NCBI GenBank assembly: GCA_947589065.1
Contig: CANPZM010000002.1
Span: forward strand, 1-63,409
DNA: 63,409 bases
Reading direction: 5' to 3'
Source: an uncultured Clostridia bacterium
GTDB lineage: Bacteria; Bacillota; Clostridia; TANB77; CAG-508
The notes under the pieces were generated by a model that ran no database searches, had not been told where the DNA came from, and saw nothing but the letters and a program-made list of their open reading frames with translations. Below, piece by piece: positions 7,175 through 60,979 of this stretch. Each line of letters starts with the position of its first letter. Positions within the stretch are counted from its first letter, which is position 1. The position numbers were made by a program, and so were the translations under genes.

Positions 7175-7298
7175 ATATTACCTTATTTCTAAGTTTTTTT
7201 AATAATTTTCTAGGTCAGATAATTTTATCTTTTTAGATAGATTAGAAATATATACATCATTTAAATAGTAAAAAACTAACAATATAATTTTTTAACTA

Positions 7299-7331
7299 AT
7301 ATAATAGGAAAGTAGAACTTTTCTATTATAC
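7299..7331 (-). repeat. Module-3-only copy of the intergenic repeat family (AT-rich hairpin)
   Basis: ataataggaaag-tagaac-ttttctattat matches the TATAATAGGAAAG/CTTTCCTATTATA hairpin of the full repeats. Confidence 0.6.
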
Positions 7332-7359
7332 AAAAAAAGCTAGCAATTTAGCTAGCCTT
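7332..7359 (-). terminator. Rho-independent terminator after tRNA-Asn
   Basis: The minus strand reads aaaGGCTAGCtaaattGCTAGCttttttt immediately 3' of the tRNA. Confidence 0.75.
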
Positions 7360-16057: not shown

Positions 16058-16924
16058 TTAATTATTATAATTTTTACTTTTAAATCTATTCAATAGTGAG
16101 TTTCTCAACATTGCACTATTAAAGCTATATGGATTTTTATTTTTAACCTTTTCTTGCTTTTCTTTACTATAATAGCTTTGCATAGTTAAATAATTTACAT
16201 TTTTGTTTAAGACTTTCTTATTATTTTCATATGGAATTTTAAATAATACTTTTGTTCCACTCATATCAGATAAATATTTTTCTATTTCATCTATAGTTGT
16301 ATCTTCAATTATTTCTTTTACTTTACCCGTAAAAATATCAATAACACTAGATTTTATCTGCATTTTTGTACTTTTATCTACCATATTATCAGTTATTAAA
16401 ACTTCTTTTACATTATACTTTTTTGATAACTTTATTATATTATTTTGAAATTCTGTACGATTATTTTTCTCGCTAAAAATAATAAAAACATGTTCCCTTT
16501 GATATGTATCTCTAAGTTTTCTATCCTTCCAATTAAATTTTGTATATTCATACGAATAGCCTAATTTTTTTATATCCTTTACCAGTTCCATATTTCTTTT
16601 TTTATAATATTTAAATATAGTATCAACGCCATTAGGCATATTTTCTACTAGTTTTCTTTCAGTATCAAAAGGTTTAAATACACTAATAAACGCAAGTTGT
16701 TCATTATGTGATAAATCATAAATTGAAAAACCAATACTTGACATTAGATTTCTAATATCATTTTTTCTTTTAATATCTCGTGCATTTATAAGATATTCAT
16801 AAAATTCCTCTGCTTTTTCCTTTCCAAAAAAATTATCCAAATACATTACCCAAAAACTTATTGGAATATCAAAATCTAAATTATCCAATAGATATTCCTT
16901 GTTAGTTTTCATATTTTTCTTCAT
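16058..16924 (-). CDS. Hypothetical protein (288 aa), no recognisable domain
   Basis: Long ORF with an RBS (aaaggaggaattt) upstream. Lys/Asn-rich. I recognise no motif. Confidence 0.6.
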   Translation of the reverse strand: MKKNMKTNKEYLLDNLDFDIPISFWVMYLDNFFGKEKAEEFYEYLINARDIKRKNDIRNLMSSIGFSIYDLSHNEQLAFISVFKPFDTERKLVENMPNGVDTIFKYYKKRNMELVKDIKKLGYSYEYTKFNWKDRKLRDTYQREHVFIIFSEKNNRTEFQNNIIKLSKKYNVKEVLITDNMVDKSTKMQIKSSVIDIFTGKVKEIIEDTTIDEIEKYLSDMSGTKVLFKIPYENNKKVLNKNVNYLTMQSYYSKEKQEKVKNKNPYSFNSAMLRNSLLNRFKSKNYNN

Positions 16925-17155
16925 AAAAATTCCTCCTTTTATTATTGCTTATAAAGAGGAACAAATGAATTAAAAAAAACATCTAAGATAACTTTTCTTA
17001 AATGTTTTAAGTTATCCTTATCGTTCTAGCTTTAGCACCTAATTAAATAGGTTGCTGCGTAGTCAACGTGCTAGTCACTCGTACGCTCTTTATAAGGTTT
17101 TATTAAATTTTATTTATTATACATCAAATCTTTCTAAAAGTCTATATAAATTAAA

Positions 17156-19272: not shown

Positions 19273-20025
19273 CTAATAATTTAAACTATTAACCCAGTCT
19301 GTTACTTCACTCTGTGATGTAGTAAGTCTTTCTCCATCTAGCCAATTAACATTTTTGTAATTACTTTTGAAGTAATTAACACTTGTAGATATTCCAGAGC
19401 TTCCTGATGTACAAAATGGAATAACTGTTTTTCCACTCAAATCATAATTATCTAAAAATGTTAAAATTATTCTTGGTGCATCTCCAAACCAAATTGGATA
19501 ACCTAAGTAAATTACATCATAAGAATCTGTATCAATAGTATTTGAAATTTCTGGTCTAGCAGAAGAGTCGTTTTGTTCTTTTGTAGCTCTGCTATTGTTA
19601 TTATTATAGCTTAAGTCTTCATCAGTATATTGTTCCTTTGGTTCTATTTTTATTAAGTCTCCACCTGTTGCATCTTTTATATATTCTGCAACTTTTTCGG
19701 TAGTTCCTGTTGCAGAAAAGTAAATGATTGCTATTTTTTGATTGTCAGAAGTTTCACTATTTACTGTATTATCTGTTGCATTATCTAATGTATTTTCTGC
19801 TGTATTATCTACAATATTATCTACAGTATTTTCTACAATATTGGATACACTATTTTCTTCAACATTATTCTCATTTTCATTCATATTTGCATTTGAATTT
19901 AAATTATTATTAGCATTATTTGATTCATTAGAATTATTAGAACTAACTAACCAAATACTAACTCCTGCCACAATTGCCACAATTGCAATTATCGCAATTA
20001 TTAAAGCTATTATCTTTTTATTCAT
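19273..20025 (-). CDS. Membrane-anchored flavodoxin-like protein
   Basis: N-terminal TM helix and an Asn/Asp-rich low-complexity linker. The flavodoxin core follows: IAIIYFSATGTTEKVAEYI...YLGYPIWFGDAP...PFCTSGSSG. Confidence 0.8.
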   Translation of the reverse strand: MNKKIIALIIAIIAIVAIVAGVSIWLVSSNNSNESNNANNNLNSNANMNENENNVEENSVSNIVENTVDNIVDNTAENTLDNATDNTVNSETSDNQKIAIIYFSATGTTEKVAEYIKDATGGDLIKIEPKEQYTDEDLSYNNNNSRATKEQNDSSARPEISNTIDTDSYDVIYLGYPIWFGDAPRIILTFLDNYDLSGKTVIPFCTSGSSGISTSVNYFKSNYKNVNWLDGERLTTSQSEVTDWVNSLNY

Positions 20026-23800: not shown

Positions 23801-23926
23801 TTTAGATCTAAACTCCTTTTGACTTTAAGATACCTTACATCTTTATATTGCTTAAATTTAAAAAAAGGTAACACTTTTATGTAATAATATTTTTTATTAT
23901 AACTTATCAATCATTTATATAACTAA

Positions 23927-24077
23927 GAACAAAAGCGGATATTATTAACATTTTCGCTATTTACGACATTTTAAGGTCCGCGTCTTTGTTCGTCCGCGAA
24001 AAATTGTATAACAATTTTTCTGTGGAATGCTTTATATCATAGGAAATTCATAGAACTTTCCTATGATATAAAAAAAA
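23927..24077 (-). repeat. Intergenic modular repeat, full copy A
   Basis: gaacaaaagcggat...ggtccgcgtctttgttcgtccgcGAAAAATTGTataACAATTTTTCtgtggaatg...tatcatagg-loop-cctatgata. The strand given is the one on which the modules read M3-M2-M1. Confidence 0.9.
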
Positions 24078-24110
24078 GACAAATAATTTCAATTATCTGC
24101 CTTATTTATG

Positions 24111-26548: not shown

Positions 26549-26565
26549 ATATTTTCAATTTTTTT

Positions 26566-26620
26566 GCAATGTAAGTTTTTTATATAACAGGAAATTTTTA
26601 CTTTACTATTATATAGAAAA
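26566..26620 (-). repeat. Partial, degenerate copy of the repeat family (M3 plus the caatgtaag flank)
   Basis: tgcaatgtaagttttttatataacaggaaatttttactttactattatata aligns with the M3 end of copy E. Confidence 0.6.
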
Positions 26621-26652
26621 TAATACTAGTTATCTTTTCATAACTAGTATTA
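26621..26652 (-). terminator. Terminator after eno
   Basis: The minus strand reads AATACTAGTTATgaaaagATAACTAGTATTattttct. Confidence 0.7.
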
Positions 26653-34331: not shown

Positions 34332-34466
34332 TTAAATAATTTTATTAAGGTTACAATTAACCATGCTTATTCTATATCAAAAGATATAGAATTGCAATAC
34401 TTTATTATATTTTTCCCTAACGTATTTTTTTTATAACAATTATAGAAACTACTTGATATTTTTTTA

Positions 34467-34617
34467 CAACAAAAGCGGACATTATTAACCTTTTCGCTGT
34501 CTATAACATTTTAAAGTCCGCGTTTTTGTTCGTCCACGAAAAATTGTATAACAATTTTTCTGTAGAATGCTTTATATTATAGGAAGTTCAGAGAACTTTC
34601 CTATAATATAAAAAAAA
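34467..34617 (-). repeat. Intergenic modular repeat, full copy B
   Basis: caacaaaagcggac...gtccgcgtttttgttcgtccacGAAAAATTGTataACAATTTTTCtgtagaatg...tattatagg-loop-cctataata. Confidence 0.9.
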
Positions 34618-34649
34618 TGCCACATTTAAGTAGCATTTTAGAATTTATA

Positions 34650-35383: not shown

Positions 35384-36676
35384 TCAATCTATCAAAAAGG
35401 TTTCACACGCATTTTTTACCTTTATTTTAACAATTTTTCCTATATTTTCAGCCTTTAAATGACTTTTTACCATTATATAATTACCTGTATGTCCTTTTAT
35501 TAATAACTTATCCTCTTGTTCTTCAAATAGCACTTCTACTTCTTTTCCAACATAAGACATCAAATATTCTTTCTCATTTTTTTCTGAAAGTTCAATTAAT
35601 TTTTTACTCCTAGCTTCTTTAATATTTCCATCAACTTGATTTTTCATTTTTTCAGCTACTGTACCTTTTCTAGGTGAAAATTTAAATACATGCGTCTTAT
35701 AAAACTTTATTTCTTTTAAAAATTCATATGTTTTTTCGAAATCATCTTCGCTCTCATTTGGAAAACCTACAATTATATCTGTTGTTAATATTACATCACT
35801 ATATAAATTTCTTAATAGCTTTACAACATTTCTAAACTGTTCTGTAGTATACTTTCTATTCATTTCCTTTAAAGTTTTATCACATCCACTTTGTAAAGAA
35901 AGATGAAAATGATGACACATTTTTTCAATATTTTTTAATCTTTTGCAAAAATTTTCAGTAATAATCAATGGTTCTAATGACCCTAGTCTAATTCTTTCAA
36001 TACCATCTATTTTGTTAATATCTTCTAGTAAATCAATTAATCTATATTCATTTTGAAAATCCAAGCCATAAGCTGAAACTTGTATACCTGTTATTACAAC
36101 TTCCTTGATTCCTTTTTCAGCTATCTGACTAATTTCTTCAATTACACTTTCTGGCTTTCTACTGCATATTCTTCCTCTAGCATAAGGAATAATGCAATAA
36201 CTGCAAAAGTTATTACATCCATTTTGAACTTTTATTACTGCTCTTGTTTTTTCTGTATATGTAACATTACCAAAATCATAATAGTAATTTGTATCCTTTT
36301 CTTCCTGTACTTCATTTCCCTCAAAATATGCATCAATATATTGAGCTATATTAACTTTTTGTACATTTCCAAGAACTAAGTCAACTTCTGGCATCTTCTC
36401 TAGTTCTTCTTTAGCTGTTTCAGCATAGCATCCAACAGCAATAATTAAAGCATTTTTATTAATTTCCTTAGCACGCCTTATCATCTGTCTAGATTTTCTA
36501 TCTGAAATATTTGTCACACTACAAGTATTAATTACATATACATCAGCCTTTTGCTCTGGTTGAACAATCTCAAATTTATCCATTAATTTTTGTATCATTC
36601 CATTTGTTTCATATTGATTAACTTTACATCCTAATGTAAAAAAAGCAACTTTTTTCATTTTATTTCCTTCTAACAA
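35384..36676 (-). CDS. mtaB: Radical-SAM methylthiotransferase, MtaB-like (tRNA t6A37 methylthiolation)
   Basis: N-terminal FFTLGCKVNQYE (UPF0004), radical-SAM CNNFCSYCIIP and a C-terminal TRAM-like domain. The likely start is MKKVAFF at 36658, after AGAAGGAAA. Confidence 0.8.
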   Translation of the reverse strand: MLEGNKMKKVAFFTLGCKVNQYETNGMIQKLMDKFEIVQPEQKADVYVINTCSVTNISDRKSRQMIRRAKEINKNALIIAVGCYAETAKEELEKMPEVDLVLGNVQKVNIAQYIDAYFEGNEVQEEKDTNYYYDFGNVTYTEKTRAVIKVQNGCNNFCSYCIIPYARGRICSRKPESVIEEISQIAEKGIKEVVITGIQVSAYGLDFQNEYRLIDLLEDINKIDGIERIRLGSLEPLIITENFCKRLKNIEKMCHHFHLSLQSGCDKTLKEMNRKYTTEQFRNVVKLLRNLYSDVILTTDIIVGFPNESEDDFEKTYEFLKEIKFYKTHVFKFSPRKGTVAEKMKNQVDGNIKEARSKKLIELSEKNEKEYLMSYVGKEVEVLFEEQEDKLLIKGHTGNYIMVKSHLKAENIGKIVKIKVKNACETFLID

Positions 36677-36726
36677 TGTAAGTATTTTTTATATAATAGG
36701 AAAGTAACTTTCCTATTATATAAAAA
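36674..36726 (-). repeat. Partial copy of the repeat family (M3 plus the caatgtaag flank)
   Basis: caatgtaagtattttttatataataggaaagtaactttcctattatataaaaa lies between the mreB stop and the mtaB start. Confidence 0.75.
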
Positions 36727-36758
36727 TACTCTACCATAACTTAGTAGAGTATTGCAAA

Positions 36759-40474: not shown

Positions 40475-40601
40475 ACTTTCCTATTACATAATAAATTCAC
40501 ATTCCACAGAAAAATTGTTATACAATTTTTCGCGAACGAACAAGACGTGGACTTTAAAATATTAAAAATATTGAAAATGCCAATAATGTCCGCTTTTATT
40601 C
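40475..40601 (+). repeat. Intergenic modular repeat, copy C (inverted relative to the others; M3 half only)
   Basis: The plus strand reads ctttcctattacata...attccacaGAAAAATTGTtatACAATTTTTCgcgaacgaacaagacgtggac...gtccgcttttattc. It ends 10 nt from the lexA stop. Confidence 0.85.
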
Positions 40602-40610
40602 TTTCTATTA

Positions 40611-45162: not shown

Positions 45163-45327
45163 ATGTTAGAAGAAAAACAGAAATGTGGTCACACTCAAAA
45201 GCAAAATGAAACTCCGAAAAAAGAAAAGCCATATTTCGGCGAATCTCCTGATGACTTGGAAGCCCTGTTGACAGACTTTATTGACTGTCGAGCAACAAGA
45301 GTGTCATCATCTAAGGCTGAAATTTAG
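45163..45327 (+). CDS. Unannotated 54-aa hypothetical protein (MLEEKQKCGHTQKQNETPKKEKPYFGESPDDLEALLTDFIDCRATRVSSSKAEI)
   Basis: ATG preceded by ataGGAGGtatttacc, its own promoter and a GC-rich terminator. The region is visibly richer in G+C than its flanks. The ORF is below the size cutoff of the ORF track. Confidence 0.6.
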   Translation: MLEEKQKCGHTQKQNETPKKEKPYFGESPDDLEALLTDFIDCRATRVSSSKAEI

Positions 45328-45333
45328 CCTCCT

Positions 45334-45366
45334 CACCGCGTGAATTTGTTCACGCGGTGTTTTTCT
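45334..45366 (+). terminator. Rho-independent terminator of the 54-aa ORF
   Basis: CACCGCGTGAAtttgTTCACGCGGTGttttt. Confidence 0.85.
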
Positions 45367-45392
45367 TCATATACTCGAATTCAATTAATATA

Positions 45393-45542
45393 GAACAAAA
45401 GCGGACATTATTAATATTTTTGCTATTTATGACATTTTAAAGTCCGCGTCTTTGTTCGTCCGAGAAAAATTGTGTAACAATTTTTCTGTGTAATGTTAAT
45501 TTTTTATATAATAGGAAAAAAACTTTCCTATTATATAAAAAA
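45393..45542 (-). repeat. Intergenic modular repeat, full copy D
   Basis: gaacaaaagcggac...gtccgcgtctttgttcgtccgaGAAAAATTGTgtaACAATTTTTCtgtgtaatg...tataatagg-loop-cctattata. Confidence 0.9.
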
Positions 45543-45613
45543 TTCCTTCTTACTTGATATAATATTACGATTTACTAACCGTAAATAATAATCAAAAAGA
45601 AGGAATTTATAAA

Positions 45614-46996
45614 TTAAATTTCGATTTTTTCTCTAATCCAATTTACTAAATCATCAATTTTTATTCTAACTTGCTCCATTGTATCTCTATCTCTTATAGT
45701 AACCTCATTATCCTCTAATGTATCAAAATCAATTGTTACGCAATAAGGTGTACCTATTTCATCTTCTCTTCTATATCTTTTTCCTATACTTCCTGCATCA
45801 TCAAAGTCACACATAAAATATTTTGAAAGTTTATTATATACATCTAAGGCTTTATCATTTAATTTCTTAGATAATGGTAATACTGCTACCTTATATGGAG
45901 CTAAAAATGGATGAAGTTTTAATACAGTTCTTACGTCACCTTCAGCAATTTCCTCTTTTTCATAACTATTGCATAAAAATGCAAGTAAAACTCTATCAGC
46001 ACCAAGTGATGGCTCAATTACATATGGTACATATTTCTCATTTGTTTCAGGATCTTGATATGACATATCTTGTTTTGAATGGTTCATATGTTGTGTTAAA
46101 TCATAATTTGTTCTATCAGCAATTCCCCATAATTCTCCCCAACCAAATGGAAATTTAAATTCTATATCTGTAGTTGCATTACTATAAAAAACTAATTCCT
46201 CCGGTGAATGATCTCTTAGTCTTATATTTTCCTTTTTCATACCTAAACTTAATAACCAATTTTCACAAAAATCTTTCCAATATTTATGCCATTCTAAATC
46301 AGTACCAGGTTTGCAGAAAAATTCAAGTTCCATTTGTTCAAATTCTCTTGTTCTAAATATAAAGTTTCCAGGTGTAATTTCATTTCTAAAAGCTTTACCA
46401 ATTTGAGCTATACCCATTGGAATTTTCTTTCTAGAAGTTCTTAATACATTTTTAAAATCTACAAATATTCCTTGAGCTGTTTCTGGTCTTAAATATATTT
46501 CAGATGTAGTATCTTCAGTAACACCTTGAAAAGTTTTAAACATTAGATTAAACTTTCTGATATCTGTAAAATTAACTTTTCCACATTTAGGGCAAGGTAT
46601 TTGATTTTCATTAATAAAATCAATTAACTCCTTATCTGTCATTCCATCTGCAATCATATCTTTACCCTGTTCATGAGCCCATTCCTCGATTAATTTATCA
46701 GCTCTATGTCTAGTTTTGCAGTCTTTACAATCAATCAAAGGATCTGAAAATCCCCCAACATGACCTGATGCAACCCATGTTTCAGGATTCATAAGTATTG
46801 CTGCATCTAATCCTACAATATTAGGTTGTTCTTGTATAAATTTTTTTCTCCAAGCTGATTTAATATTATTTTTTAGTTCATTTCCCAAAGGTCCATAATC
46901 CCACGTATTAGCTAATCCTCCATATATTTCAGAGCCAGCATAAATATATCCTCTTGCCTTACATAAATTAACAATTTCCTCCATGTTTTCTACCAT
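45614..46996 (-). CDS. glyQS: Glycine--tRNA ligase (dimeric class II GlyQS type)
   Basis: Class II motifs ([38 protein letters not shown]) and a C-terminal anticodon-binding domain. An RBS AAGGAGG precedes the ATG. Confidence 0.94.
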
Positions 46997-47061
46997 AAAT
47001 ATTCCTCCTTTTTATTAAATCTTGGGATAAAATTAACATTTATATAAAATTAATATTTATA

Positions 47062-47210
47062 GAACAAAAGCGGACATTATAAACATTTTGGCTGTTTATA
47101 ACATTTTAAAGTCCACGTCTTTGTTCTTCCGCGAAAAATTGTATAACAATTTTTCTGTGCAATGTAAGTTTATTATATAATAGGAAAGTTTTACTTTCCT
47201 ATTATATAAT
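47062..47210 (-). repeat. Intergenic modular repeat, full copy E (inside the glyQS leader)
   Basis: gaacaaaagcggac...gtccacgtctttgttcttccgcGAAAAATTGTataACAATTTTTCtgtgcaatgtaag...tataataggaaag-loop-ctttcctattata. It abuts the T-box terminator at 47211. Confidence 0.9.
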
Positions 47211-47432
47211 AAAAAACTTTCATCCCACAAAGGGACGAAAGTAACTTCCGCGGTTCCACCCTATTTGATCATTAATGATCCACCTTAATTAAAATTTGCT
47301 CCAAAGTTCCATCCTATACATTTTAATACTAGATTTCACCATCCTAGTTCTCTTTAATTAAAATTGTACATTCATTCTTTTTCAACGCAATATTAGTATA
47401 ATTATTTTATTCTCTTATGACATTTTTGTCAA
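47211..47432 (-). promoter_or_regulatory. T-box leader of glyQS with its promoter
   Basis: Minus-strand promoter TTGACA (47432-47427), 17-nt spacer, TAAAAT (47409-47404). T-box sequence aaatagGGTGGaACCGCG at 47249-47266. The terminator actttcgtccctttgtgggatgaaagtttttt is at 47211-47242. Confidence 0.85.
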
Positions 47433-54337: not shown

Positions 54338-54416
54338 ATTTCCTCCTTTTAGAAATATTTTGTTTTTATATTATATATTAAAAATATTACATTATCAACT
54401 ATTACCTTTTATTTTA

Positions 54417-54565
54417 GAACAAAAGCGGACATTATTAACATTTTTGCTATTTATGACATTTTAAAGTCCGCGTCTTTGTTCGTCCGCGAAAAATTGTACA
54501 ACAATTTTTCTGTGGAATGTTAATTTTTTATATAATAGGAAAGAACTTTCCTATTATATAAAAAA
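54417..54565 (-). repeat. Intergenic modular repeat, full copy F
   Basis: gaacaaaagcggac...gtccgcgtctttgttcgtccgcGAAAAATTGTacaACAATTTTTCtgtggaatg...tataataggaaag-aac-tttcctattata. Confidence 0.9.
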
Positions 54566-54607
54566 TAACAACATTAGAATAATAAACTAATGTTGTTATT
54601 TTTTATA

Positions 54608-55090: not shown

Positions 55091-55140
55091 TTGTAAGTTT
55101 TTCTATAATAGGAAGTTCAGAGAACTTTCCTATTATAGAA
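55091..55140 (-). repeat. Partial copy of the repeat family (M3 plus the tgtaag flank)
   Basis: ttgtaagtttttctataataggaagttcagagaactttcctattatag. The loop matches the loop of copy B. Confidence 0.7.
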
Positions 55141-55175
55141 AAAAATTCACTTCTTTACCCGAAGTGAATTTTTTT
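55141..55175 (-). terminator. Terminator after the GGGtGRT gene
   Basis: The minus strand reads aaaaaAATTCACTTCgggtaaaGAAGTGAATTttttt. Confidence 0.8.
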
Positions 55176-55194
55176 CATTAATATTATTTATAAT

Positions 55195-56196
55195 TTATTT
55201 CATAGCTTCTTCTACTGCAACAGCAACAGCAACAGTTGCACCAACCATTGGATTATTTCCCATACCAATTAGTCCCATCATTTCAACATGAGCTGGTACA
55301 GATGAAGAACCCGCAAATTGTGCATCTGAATGCATTCTTCCCATAGTATCAGTCATACCATAAGAAGCTGGTCCAGCAGCCATATTATCAGGATGTAATG
55401 TTCTTCCTGTTCCACCACCAGATGCAACAGAAAAATATTTTTTGCCTGCTTCTATTCTTTCTTTTTTATATGTTCCTGCAACTGGATGTTGGAATCTTGT
55501 TGGATTTGTTGAATTTCCAGTAATAGAAACGTCAACATCCTCTAACCACATTATAGCTACACCTTCTCTAACATCATTTGCACCATAGCATCTAACTTTT
55601 GATCTTTCTCCATTTGAATATGGTATTTCTTCAACTATTTTCACTTTACCAGTAAAGAAATCAAATTCAGTTTTTACATATGTAAATCCGTTAATTCTTG
55701 AAATTACTTGTGCTGCATCTTTTCCCAAACCATTTAAAATAACTCTTAATGGTTCTTTTCTAACTTTATTAGCTGATTTTGCTATACCAATAGCACCTTC
55801 AGCAGCAGCAAAAGACTCATGTCCTGCCAAAAAAGCAAAACATTTTGTTTCTTCTGATAATAGCATTGAAGCTAAATTTCCATGTCCTAAACCAACTTTT
55901 CTATCATCTGCAACAGAACCTGGAATACAAAAAGCTTGTAATCCTTCTCCAATAGCTTTTGCAGCATCAGCAGCTTTTGTGCAACCTTTCTTTATAGCTA
56001 TTGCTGCACCTAAAGTATATGCCCAACATGCATTTTCAAAACAAATTGGTTGAACTCCTTTTACCATATCATAAGGATTAAATCCTTTTTGTTTGCAAAT
56101 TTCTAGAGCATCTTCAAAATCTTTTATTCCGTATTTATCCATCACTGGCTTAATTTGATTTATTCTTCTTTCATAACTTTCAAATGTTACTGACAT
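55195..56196 (-). CDS. GGGtGRT family protein (function unknown)
   Basis: Contains the eponymous SGGGTGRTLHPDN motif, the conserved tail MGRMHSDAQFAGSSSVPAHVEMMG and a C-terminal AVAVAVEEA. Confidence 0.85.
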   Translation of the reverse strand: MSVTFESYERRINQIKPVMDKYGIKDFEDALEICKQKGFNPYDMVKGVQPICFENACWAYTLGAAIAIKKGCTKAADAAKAIGEGLQAFCIPGSVADDRKVGLGHGNLASMLLSEETKCFAFLAGHESFAAAEGAIGIAKSANKVRKEPLRVILNGLGKDAAQVISRINGFTYVKTEFDFFTGKVKIVEEIPYSNGERSKVRCYGANDVREGVAIMWLEDVDVSITGNSTNPTRFQHPVAGTYKKERIEAGKKYFSVASGGGTGRTLHPDNMAAGPASYGMTDTMGRMHSDAQFAGSSSVPAHVEMMGLIGMGNNPMVGATVAVAVAVEEAMK

Positions 56197-56964: not shown

Positions 56965-57081
56965 ATTTACCTCCTACTATTAATTGTTATATTTAACCAT
57001 TGTCATTCTATCATAATTCATTTTGGCTTTCAACATGTTTTGTCTGCCTCAATTTATTATAATACCAAATTTCCAATAGCA

Positions 57082-57225
57082 GAACAAAAGCGGACATTAT
57101 TAACATTTTCGCTATTTATGACATTTTAAAGTCCGCGTCTTTGTTCGTCCGCGAAAAATTGTATAACAATTTTTCTGTGGAATGCTTTCTATTATAGGAA
57201 GTTCATAGAACTTGCCTATTACATA
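57082..57225 (-). repeat. Intergenic modular repeat, full copy G
   Basis: gaacaaaagcggac...gtccgcgtctttgttcgtccgcGAAAAATTGTataACAATTTTTCtgtggaatg...tattatagg-loop-cctattaca. Confidence 0.9.
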
Positions 57226-57259
57226 AATTAAGCATTGCGTTATTGCAATGCTTTTTATA

Positions 57260-60595: not shown

Positions 60596-60703
60596 CCCTT
60601 TCGCAAAAATTTATTTTATAGAGAAAATATAAATTAGAATACAATAATAAATTTTTCATATAATATTTTCTTAAACTTAGAAATATACTTTATTATGCAT
60701 TTT

Positions 60704-60738
60704 TATACAATAGAAAAGTAAAACTTTCCTATTACATA
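60704..60738 (-). repeat. Degenerate module-3-only copy of the repeat family
   Basis: tatacaatagaaaagtaaaactttcctattacata lies immediately 3' (in the gene-sense direction) of the aspS T-box terminator. Confidence 0.5.
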
Positions 60739-60979
60739 AAAAACTTTCATCCCTGCAAGGGACGAAAGTTTTTTCCGTGATACCACCCTAATTGGATAAA
60801 TCAATATTTACCCCACTCTATAAAAATAGCTCCAACATGTTTCATAATTATTTCCATCCAGATTATTTTCAGCCAAGATAATCTTCTCTGTAGGATTTTC
60901 TATCATAATTACTTTGTGTTATCTACACTAAATATTTTCTAATACAAATTATTTTAAACAGTTTTTCCAAAAATGTCAA
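60739..60979 (-). promoter_or_regulatory. T-box leader of aspS with its promoter
   Basis: Minus-strand promoter TTGACA (60979-60974), 17-nt spacer, TAAAAT (60956-60951). T-box sequence aattagGGTGGtAtCACGG at 60775-60795. The terminator actttcgtcccttgcagggatgaaagtttttt is at 60739-60770. Confidence 0.85.

Follow-up and report, generated by a model that had tools for sequence, protein, structure and literature searches.

The trp leader of Streptococcus pneumoniae carries a BOX element (A1B2C1) between two T-box riboswitches, where it is co-transcribed and regulation is retained (Croucher et al. 2011, PMC3049150). Here we describe a related arrangement in 63,409 nt of DNA from an uncultured Clostridia gut bacterium (GenBank assembly GCA_947589065.1, contig CANPZM010000002.1, positions 1 to 63,409; this whole stretch is called the window), in which one copy of a non-coding repeat of about 150 nt, copy E, lies between the T-box terminator and the start codon of glyQS, the gene of glycine--tRNA ligase (GlyRS). 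We consider it somewhat better than an even chance (a probability of about 0.55) that copy E is a tolerated passenger of the 5′ untranslated region (UTR), present because its family targets terminators. Like BOX, the repeat is small, modular, hairpin-rich, interspersed and placed inside a T-box-controlled leader. BOX, however, sits between two T-boxes, has terminal inverted repeats and target duplications, and differs in sequence and host; no rule of placement after terminators has been reported for it, and co-transcription is in our case deduced from the layout of the leader. A repeat in a T-box leader is not new in kind, and the present one is a second example of a known situation. Of more interest is the clean rule of placement at terminator T-runs, which suggests a terminator-recognising insertion by a 150-nt element without an obvious enzyme.

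Three further systems are close in other respects. SPRITE, a repeat that resembles a terminator, is enriched at the 3′ ends of genes (PMC3049150). The present element is likewise AT-rich, about 150 nt long, found near gene 3′ ends and between convergent genes, and carries a hairpin with a U-rich tail; SPRITE is itself terminator-like, whereas our element stands behind an unrelated pre-existing terminator, has three hairpins, and its third hairpin (HP3) is energetically poor as a terminator. Group IIC (class C) introns insert after intrinsic terminators (Zimmerly and Semper 2015, PMC4424553; Robart et al. 2007, as cited in that review). Oriented insertion directly downstream of the terminator motifs of any gene is also what the present family displays, but the likeness is in targeting behaviour alone, since the element is 150 nt long and without ribozyme domains (D5/D6) or reverse transcriptase. 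A remnant of a group II intron was considered as an identity for the element and rejected, because there was no Rfam intron match at the gathering threshold or in a permissive search and the element has no open reading frame (ORF) in its 150 nt.

The repetitive extragenic palindrome (REP) and bacterial interspersed mosaic element (BIME) mosaics of enterobacteria, and the elements derived from IS200/IS605, are palindrome-based interspersed families. The first hairpin of our element, HP1, is a short extragenic palindrome that occurs alone five times and within seven composites, so the family has the solo and mosaic forms of REP/BIME; hairpins lie near both ends, and copies have one orientation. 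As in the elements derived from IS200/IS605, terminal inverted repeats are lacking, and the copies compared show no obvious target duplication. Unlike REP, HP1 is AT-rich and has no GTAG-type head, and the REP-associated tyrosine transposase (RAYT)/TnpA was not seen among the ORFs scanned. To our knowledge, REP units have not been described as strictly adjoining terminator T-runs, and we know only of group IIC introns as elements that home to the edge of a terminator T-run.

Copy E inside the glyQS leader

The initial annotation had read the minus strand upstream of glyQS as promoter, T-box, terminator, repeat, spacer, ribosome-binding site and ATG; every one of these features is present, with coordinates off by a few bases at most. 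The leader begins with a sigma-A-type promoter, TTGACA-17-TAAAAT (47404-47432, 11/12 matches), and a related species has the same hexamers at the homologous place (L005; L001-L010 denote glyQS loci of related species, among 80 related glyQS loci compared in all). In a search with the Rfam 15 covariance models, the T-box leader at 47228-47394 matches RF00230 with 93.3 bits (E = 4e-19) and passes the gathering score of 93 bits, unlike the glyQS T-boxes of the closest relatives (L001-L009), which fall below it. Reading of the sequence and alignment to relatives give GGA (Gly) as the specifier codon at 47310-47308, followed by A (47307). The T-box motif GGUGGAACCGCG is at 47260-47249, and its UGGA suits a U73 discriminator, as expected for tRNA-Gly. 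The attenuator terminator (47211-47242) consists of an 11-bp stem-loop at 47242-47216 and a T6 run at 47216-47211 (dG -16.2 kcal/mol). The strand CUUUCGUCCC is common to antiterminator and terminator, which makes the two a mutually exclusive pair followed by a U-run, the arrangement that is characteristic of a T-box.

Copy E as a whole spans about 47213-47062 on the minus strand (47216-47059 in the nhmmer match, E = 1e-43). Its HP1 (47169-47213) is a perfect AT-rich palindrome of 21 bp that takes in three T of the terminator T-run. The linker CTTACATTGCACA (47156-47168), which is present in some HP1-only copies too, leads to HP2 (47133-47155), GAAAAATTGT-TAT-ACAATTTTTC, the most conserved module of the family. 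HP2 is confined to this lineage and has the highest depth of all modules in rabbit-gut metagenome runs. HP3 (47062-47126) is a long interrupted hairpin, GAACAAAG..GUGGAC..(35 nt)..GUCCGC-UUUUGUUC, with a terminator-like 3′ tail. An AU-rich spacer of 65 nt (46997-47061) with the Shine-Dalgarno (SD) sequence GGAGG at 47008-47004 separates copy E from the glyQS start codon, ATG at 46996. The gene (45614-46996) is intact and codes for a glycine--tRNA ligase of the alpha2 (dimeric) type of 460 aa, which matches NF003211 over its full length (699.9 bits, E = 1.4e-210). The nearest GlyRS relative, from a metagenome-assembled genome, is 88% identical, and no record of the exact protein sequence was found on look-up.

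Two observations concern the spacer. In both the minimum free energy (MFE) and the centroid folds, UAUAAAUAUU, the first bases 3′ of copy E (47051-47061), pairs with AAUAUUUAUG (46994-47003, minus strand), which covers the glyQS start codon; the helix is long-range and made of AU pairs only, and may be due to chance. An old repeat copy within the 65 nt, for which AAATGTTAATTTTATCC was the candidate, gained no support from the nhmmer scan of the window.

Comparison with orthologous leaders, which the initial annotation had proposed as a check, gave the corresponding empty sites. The same T-box lies directly upstream of glyQS in L001-L003, L005 and L009, and L008 and L010 are without a leader. 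Two of these sites (L002 and L009) are empty, with about 45 nt from the T-run to the ATG, against 213 nt in the window, which indicates that glyQS normally depends on T-box read-through. At the orthologous site of L005 (2918-2973), whose GlyRS is 87% identical, there is a decayed remnant of HP1 plus linker (TATTATAGTAAAGTTTTTTAAACTTTTTATAATATAAATACTTTGCACAGGAAATT; E = 2e-4 in a small search), and it is either an old shared insertion or an independent event. The nhmmer profile of the repeat detected no copy in the 80 related glyQS loci, and a relaxed HP1 regular expression proved too permissive to use on the relatives. Other inserts occupy the same slot. In L001 (300-418) an unrelated hairpin repeat, GTTGTCAAAA-(G/A)GRGACGTCC-YYTTTGACAA, occurs twice in tandem between the T-box terminator and the glyQS SD, and in L003 (2870-3000) there is another long, unrelated hairpin insert. 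On the evidence of these sequences, palindromic inserts seem to have landed more than once in this clade in the segment that separates the attenuator from the SD. A second comparison of filled and empty sites, at copy C, was abandoned because downstream synteny is not conserved in relatives.

Among the six full copies compared, copy E is the most diverged from the family consensus, with 13 substitutions against 4-11 in the others. The insertion is thus probably not recent, and the T-box has nevertheless not decayed. We also weighed whether the join of the T-box leader to glyQS might be false, produced by a collapsed repeat in the assembly. The depth of the element is about 300 times that of its flanks and no single unitig spans it, which speaks for a collapse. 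Exact unitigs from rabbit-gut metagenomes (0 differences), however, cover both junctions of copy E with unique DNA, one joining glyQS to HP3 variants specific to copy E (46957-47110) and the other joining HP1 to the T-box (47180-47395). Since these unitigs are independent of the assembly, and since the adjacency of T-box and glyQS is syntenic in relatives L001-L003, L005 and L009, an assembly artefact is very improbable.

The repeat family and its placement behind terminators

The family has the architecture HP1-linker-HP2-HP3, with three hairpins in the consensus fold. Six co-linear copies of about 150 nt have a mean column identity of 84%, a repetition well outside what chance would give; the nhmmer profile built from them and run over the window then found a seventh, on the plus strand. 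The census of the window amounts to seven full copies and five copies that consist of HP1 or of HP1 plus linker (together called HP1-only). No Rfam family corresponds to the repeat, and only chance-level microRNA matches to the HP1 palindrome were obtained (E at least 0.07). It is not a classical miniature inverted-repeat transposable element, because it lacks terminal inverted repeats; the left end (T-run/ATATAATAGG) and the right end (GTCCGCTTTTGTTCT) are not complementary. No common direct repeat flanks the seven copies as a target-site duplication would, in a comparison whose only empty sites are those of other species with diverged spacers. A resemblance of HP1 plus linker to a Xer dif site, and of HP3 to a LexA box, was judged by eye and dropped as an AT-rich coincidence.

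Members of the family lie just 3′ of intrinsic terminators. Using one simple terminator detector and intergenic positions as background, 10 of the 11 minus-strand members, the only ones entered in this test, have a terminator-like site no more than 14 nt away, as do 6.65% of the intergenic positions (binomial P = 1.7e-11). The eleventh, copy C (45390-45546), is situated 67 nt past the glyQS stop codon between convergent genes, and there an 11-bp long-range stem plus T6 past glyQS is seen by eye. The plus-strand copy D (40475-40603), which is truncated at its 5′ end within HP1 and lies between the convergent genes mutS2 and lexA, likewise has the mutS2 terminator directly ahead of it by eye. 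The full copies A (23923-24079), B (34464-34619, upstream of gap), F (54413-54569) and G (57078-57233, past greA), all on the minus strand, each stand behind the terminator of the upstream gene, as copy E stands behind the T-box terminator. The same is true of all five HP1-only copies, also on the minus strand: past the tRNA-Asn terminator (7293-7338), past the eno terminator and upstream of tRNA-Gln (26559-26623, HP1 plus linker), between the mreB stop with its terminator-like hairpin and the mtaB ribosome-binding site (36666-36730, HP1 plus linker), past the terminator hairpin of the gene at 55195-56196 (55100-55145), and directly 3′ of the aspS T-box terminator (60700-60743).

Where HP1 is intact the junction is uniform, consisting of the terminator stem, a run of 5-8 mostly T, and HP1. 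All seven full copies, the single plus-strand copy included, have the orientation of the terminated gene. The uniform junction favours site-specific insertion over mere survival of random insertions, and we infer that such insertion is the cause of the placement rule. The family is no general supplier of promoters, because copies C and D lie between convergent genes; the genes downstream of copies B, F and G have strong promoters of their own beyond the element.

The initial annotation treated the glyQS case as an isolated curiosity. Its anatomy stands, but the case is explained by an adjacency to terminators that is family-wide and covers aspS too: a T-box attenuator is an ordinary intrinsic terminator, which accounts for the occupancy of both T-box leaders. 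The parallel drawn earlier with aspS was borne out, in that a T-box is followed directly by an HP1-only copy and the downstream ORF codes for AspRS. The aspS leader has its promoter TTGACA-17-TAAAAT at 60951-60979 and its T-box at 60755-60934 on the minus strand (81.4 bits, E = 6e-18, below the gathering score). The promoter hexamers of the two leaders are identical and their T-box/terminator segments are 83% identical (47209-47267 and 60736-60794). A scan of the aspS leader gave no promoter beyond the HP1 copy, and because of this the HP1 copy must, as the leader reads, lie in the 5′ UTR of aspS. The occupied attenuators of the window are the two T-boxes, and the terminator of an S-adenosylmethionine (SAM) riboswitch is unoccupied. 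This riboswitch (16950-17098, minus strand; RF00162, 58 bits), with its own terminator and T8, is upstream of an ORF at 16058-16924 that has no NCBIfam match.

What copy E may do in the glyQS transcript

If copy E is a tolerated passenger, its history and effect could be as follows. Members of the family would insert 3′ of a terminator T-run in the same orientation, and T-box attenuators would be taken like any gene end. The upstream T-box, which is intact, would still gate RNA polymerase. On read-through, the glyQS mRNA would have a leader of about 400 nt with the T-box, three extra hairpins and an unstructured 65-nt spacer bearing the SD. Tolerance may have several grounds. The termination decision at 47242-47211 would precede transcription of the element, and since it is taken before HP1 is made, T-box sensing should be unaffected. 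HP3, by virtue of its GUCCGC-UUUUGUUCU end the sole module that might halt polymerase, would be at most a weak terminator: its hairpins come to -0.15 to -0.30 kcal/mol per nt, whereas the terminators ahead of family members reach -0.29 to -0.60. T-box control of an aminoacyl-tRNA synthetase is a built-in negative feedback, and any read-through lost might be offset by it, with less GlyRS, more uncharged tRNA-Gly and more antitermination. We infer both the weak termination by HP3 and the buffering of glyQS by feedback.

That every glyQS transcript reading through the T-box must carry the element had been asserted in the initial annotation. The anatomy, the intact T-box and promoter, and the lack of a later promoter all agree with co-transcription of copy E with glyQS, but they make it most likely rather than compulsory. 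A promoter consensus scan (sites of at least 9/12 matches and at least 4 per hexamer are reported) gave no minus-strand site between 47062 and 46996, which confirms the earlier statement that no convincing -35/-10 lies between element and ATG; a site inside HP3 had been overlooked.

Several points weigh against the passenger reading. The scan of 20 ORFs flanking repeat copies revealed no transposase or other mobilising enzyme, RAYT/TnpA included. None of the RNA runs searched contains the glyQS locus; two runs that contain the element itself are assemblies, and one of them, which lacks the locus, has 174-kb contigs and is therefore DNA. With GUCCGC-UUUUGUUCU at its end and a stability of -13.9 kcal/mol, the highest among the HP3 hairpins of the family, HP3 of copy E may terminate appreciably. 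A promoter-like site of 9/12 matches with a perfect -10 occurs within copy E. The placement rule could partly reflect selection rather than insertion specificity. A second GlyRS gene elsewhere is possible, the window being 63 kb of the genome. A joint in run X22 that seemingly 'skips 300' was not used, because it rests on 37 letters of a diverged relative.

The hairpins of copy E might have become useful to glyQS, serving as a 5′ stabiliser or processing platform of its mRNA and being kept by selection. Copy E is the most substituted copy and yet the best-folding one, with -54.4 kcal/mol against -42 to -50 for the others and -20.6 for the decayed copy D. In HP2-HP3 it carries six substitutions, which take the MFE from -24.3 for the consensus to -30.3; of 1500 consensus mutants with six random substitutions, only 0.4% do as well, and the changes at 47100, 47094 and 47081 repair mismatches in the HP3 apical stem. 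This fold test was made post hoc, though; two of the six substitutions are common to copy B and so may be subfamily marks, the letters of copy E at 47100 are common in metagenome copies, and for relatives a 45-nt spacer without any module of this kind suffices. We consider such exaptation unlikely. In one form of it, unlikely to the same degree, the hairpins would block 5′-3′ decay after endonucleolytic cleavage of the leader. The model for this is the Bacillus subtilis thrS leader, in whose processed form the terminator hairpin reportedly blocks 5′-3′ decay (work attributed to Condon, Putzer and Grunberg-Manago, 1996). By analogy, hairpins left at the 5′ end of a T-box-regulated synthetase mRNA can raise stability, and HP1-HP3 may have this effect; the stabilising hairpin of thrS is, however, the leader's own terminator and not an inserted repeat.

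The stability of HP3 could also mean that it acts as an effective constitutive terminator in series with the T-box, so that glyQS would be lowered and its feedback permanently induced. The lower stem GUGGAC/GUCCGC is followed by the tail named above, the 3′ strand in copy E is paired continuously over 16 nt, HP3b of a variant family on a metagenome contig (L081) ends in T11, and SPRITE is a precedent for terminator-like repeats (PMC3049150). But HP3 is a 47-nt hairpin with an 8-nt bulge or a long loop, per nt it is no more stable than the weakest real terminators here, and the terminator scan did not call it. Moreover, glyQS, a presumably essential gene, lacks a good downstream promoter, and a harmful HP3 should have become weaker in copy E, where it is instead stronger; we find an effective terminator quite improbable. 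No more probable is a promoter in the HP3 loop, where the predicted site ATGTTA-17-TATAAT (47104-47076, minus strand) would start transcription at about 47069 in the right arm of HP3 and supply glyQS with a basal transcript that bypasses the T-box and has about 70 nt of 5′ UTR. Its perfect -10 results from an A>T change at 47081 that is unique to copy E among the copies of the window, copies C, F and G have the homologous ATGTCA-17-AATAAT of the family consensus, and RNA begun at that point, being without the left arm of HP3, would escape HP3 termination. The -35, on the other hand, matches at only 3/6 and there is no TG extension. Promoter-like sites in this DNA of 26% GC are at chance density (14 seen, 14.7 expected from shuffles), and by our own estimate from composition a perfect TATAAT should turn up by chance every few hundred bases or so. 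The 47081 change has another possible reason, since it completes the apical stem of HP3 as well; such promoters in copies C and D would direct transcription into convergent genes; and the T-box and its promoter are undecayed, though a bypass might allow decay.

An extension of the passenger reading, which we put forward tentatively and with more doubt than belief, is that the family is an undescribed non-autonomous element homing in fixed orientation to the 3′ edge of T-runs, with attenuators as collateral targets, and that copy E has since been selected into a working part of the glyQS mRNA. If there is such a terminator-homing element, it would systematically turn simple attenuator leaders into composite 5′ UTRs. 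The glyQS locus offers a compact natural experiment, in which a presumably essential, feedback-regulated gene would be expressed through the whole element. The glyQS T-box works in vitro with purified components, so whether the element terminates, stabilises or is neutral is directly measurable, with the empty-site leaders as controls. There is also a warning for annotation, as riboswitch leaders in repeat-rich genomes may extend far beyond the covariance-model match.

Occurrence outside the window and other loci

The repeat is abundant in rabbit-gut metagenomes (runs X1-X4, analysed as unitigs with depth), which contain this locus. The flanks have a depth of 2.5-5 and the element 1300-1500 (the summed unitig depth over 47044-47228 is about 300 times that of the flanks), which implies several hundred copies in that rabbit-gut community. 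Taken with how densely copies occur in the window, the depth ratio suggests that the genome has a few hundred. The assembly X21 ('organism A'), whose contigs reach 174 kb, has many copies of the element and is without this locus. Metagenome unitigs join HP1 to other flanks, and HP3a and HP3b variants exist. A sister family on four metagenome contigs (L081:8050-8330; L082:1150-1420; L083:4800-5100; L084:3780-4000) shares HP1, linker and HP2 with the present one but has another long HP3, and in L083 this variant HP3 is nested ahead of the same right end (GTCCGCTWTTGTTCT; GTCCGCTATTGTTCT). The other flanks of HP1 and the sister family with its different HP3 indicate that the family is modular. 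Three of these four metagenome copies are behind a hairpin plus T-run (L081 has a hairpin without a T-run), and the two whose upstream ORF is clear share its orientation. An exact search with the HP2 core gave 0 matches in viral contigs and hits in four metagenome contigs only, all with a different HP3, and blastn with copies E and A gave no match in plasmid or phage records. The repeat family is lineage-restricted.

In the mreB-mtaB interval (36658-36753, minus strand), a terminator-like hairpin at 36753-36725 is followed by HP1 plus linker and then by the mtaB SD, with an ATG at 36658, 8 nt further on; the TTG at 36676, given as the start in the ORF list, is probably not the true one. From this order of features, HP1 must be part of the 5′ UTR of the mtaB mRNA unless that mRNA begins inside HP1. 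Between copy C and trpS there is an ORF of 54 aa (45163-45327, plus strand; MLEEKQKCGHTQKQNETPKKEKPYF...) with a good SD, convergent to glyQS and followed by a strong terminator (45334-45359, plus strand; 11 bp, 7 of them GC), and the ORF region looks GC-richer than its surroundings. The Rfam search of the window found no T-box for trpS. Finally, the ORF at 19273-20025 (250 aa) contains a tandem repeat with a period of 12 nt (TATTATCTACAA-like, at least 6 units) at 19767-19870 on the minus strand.

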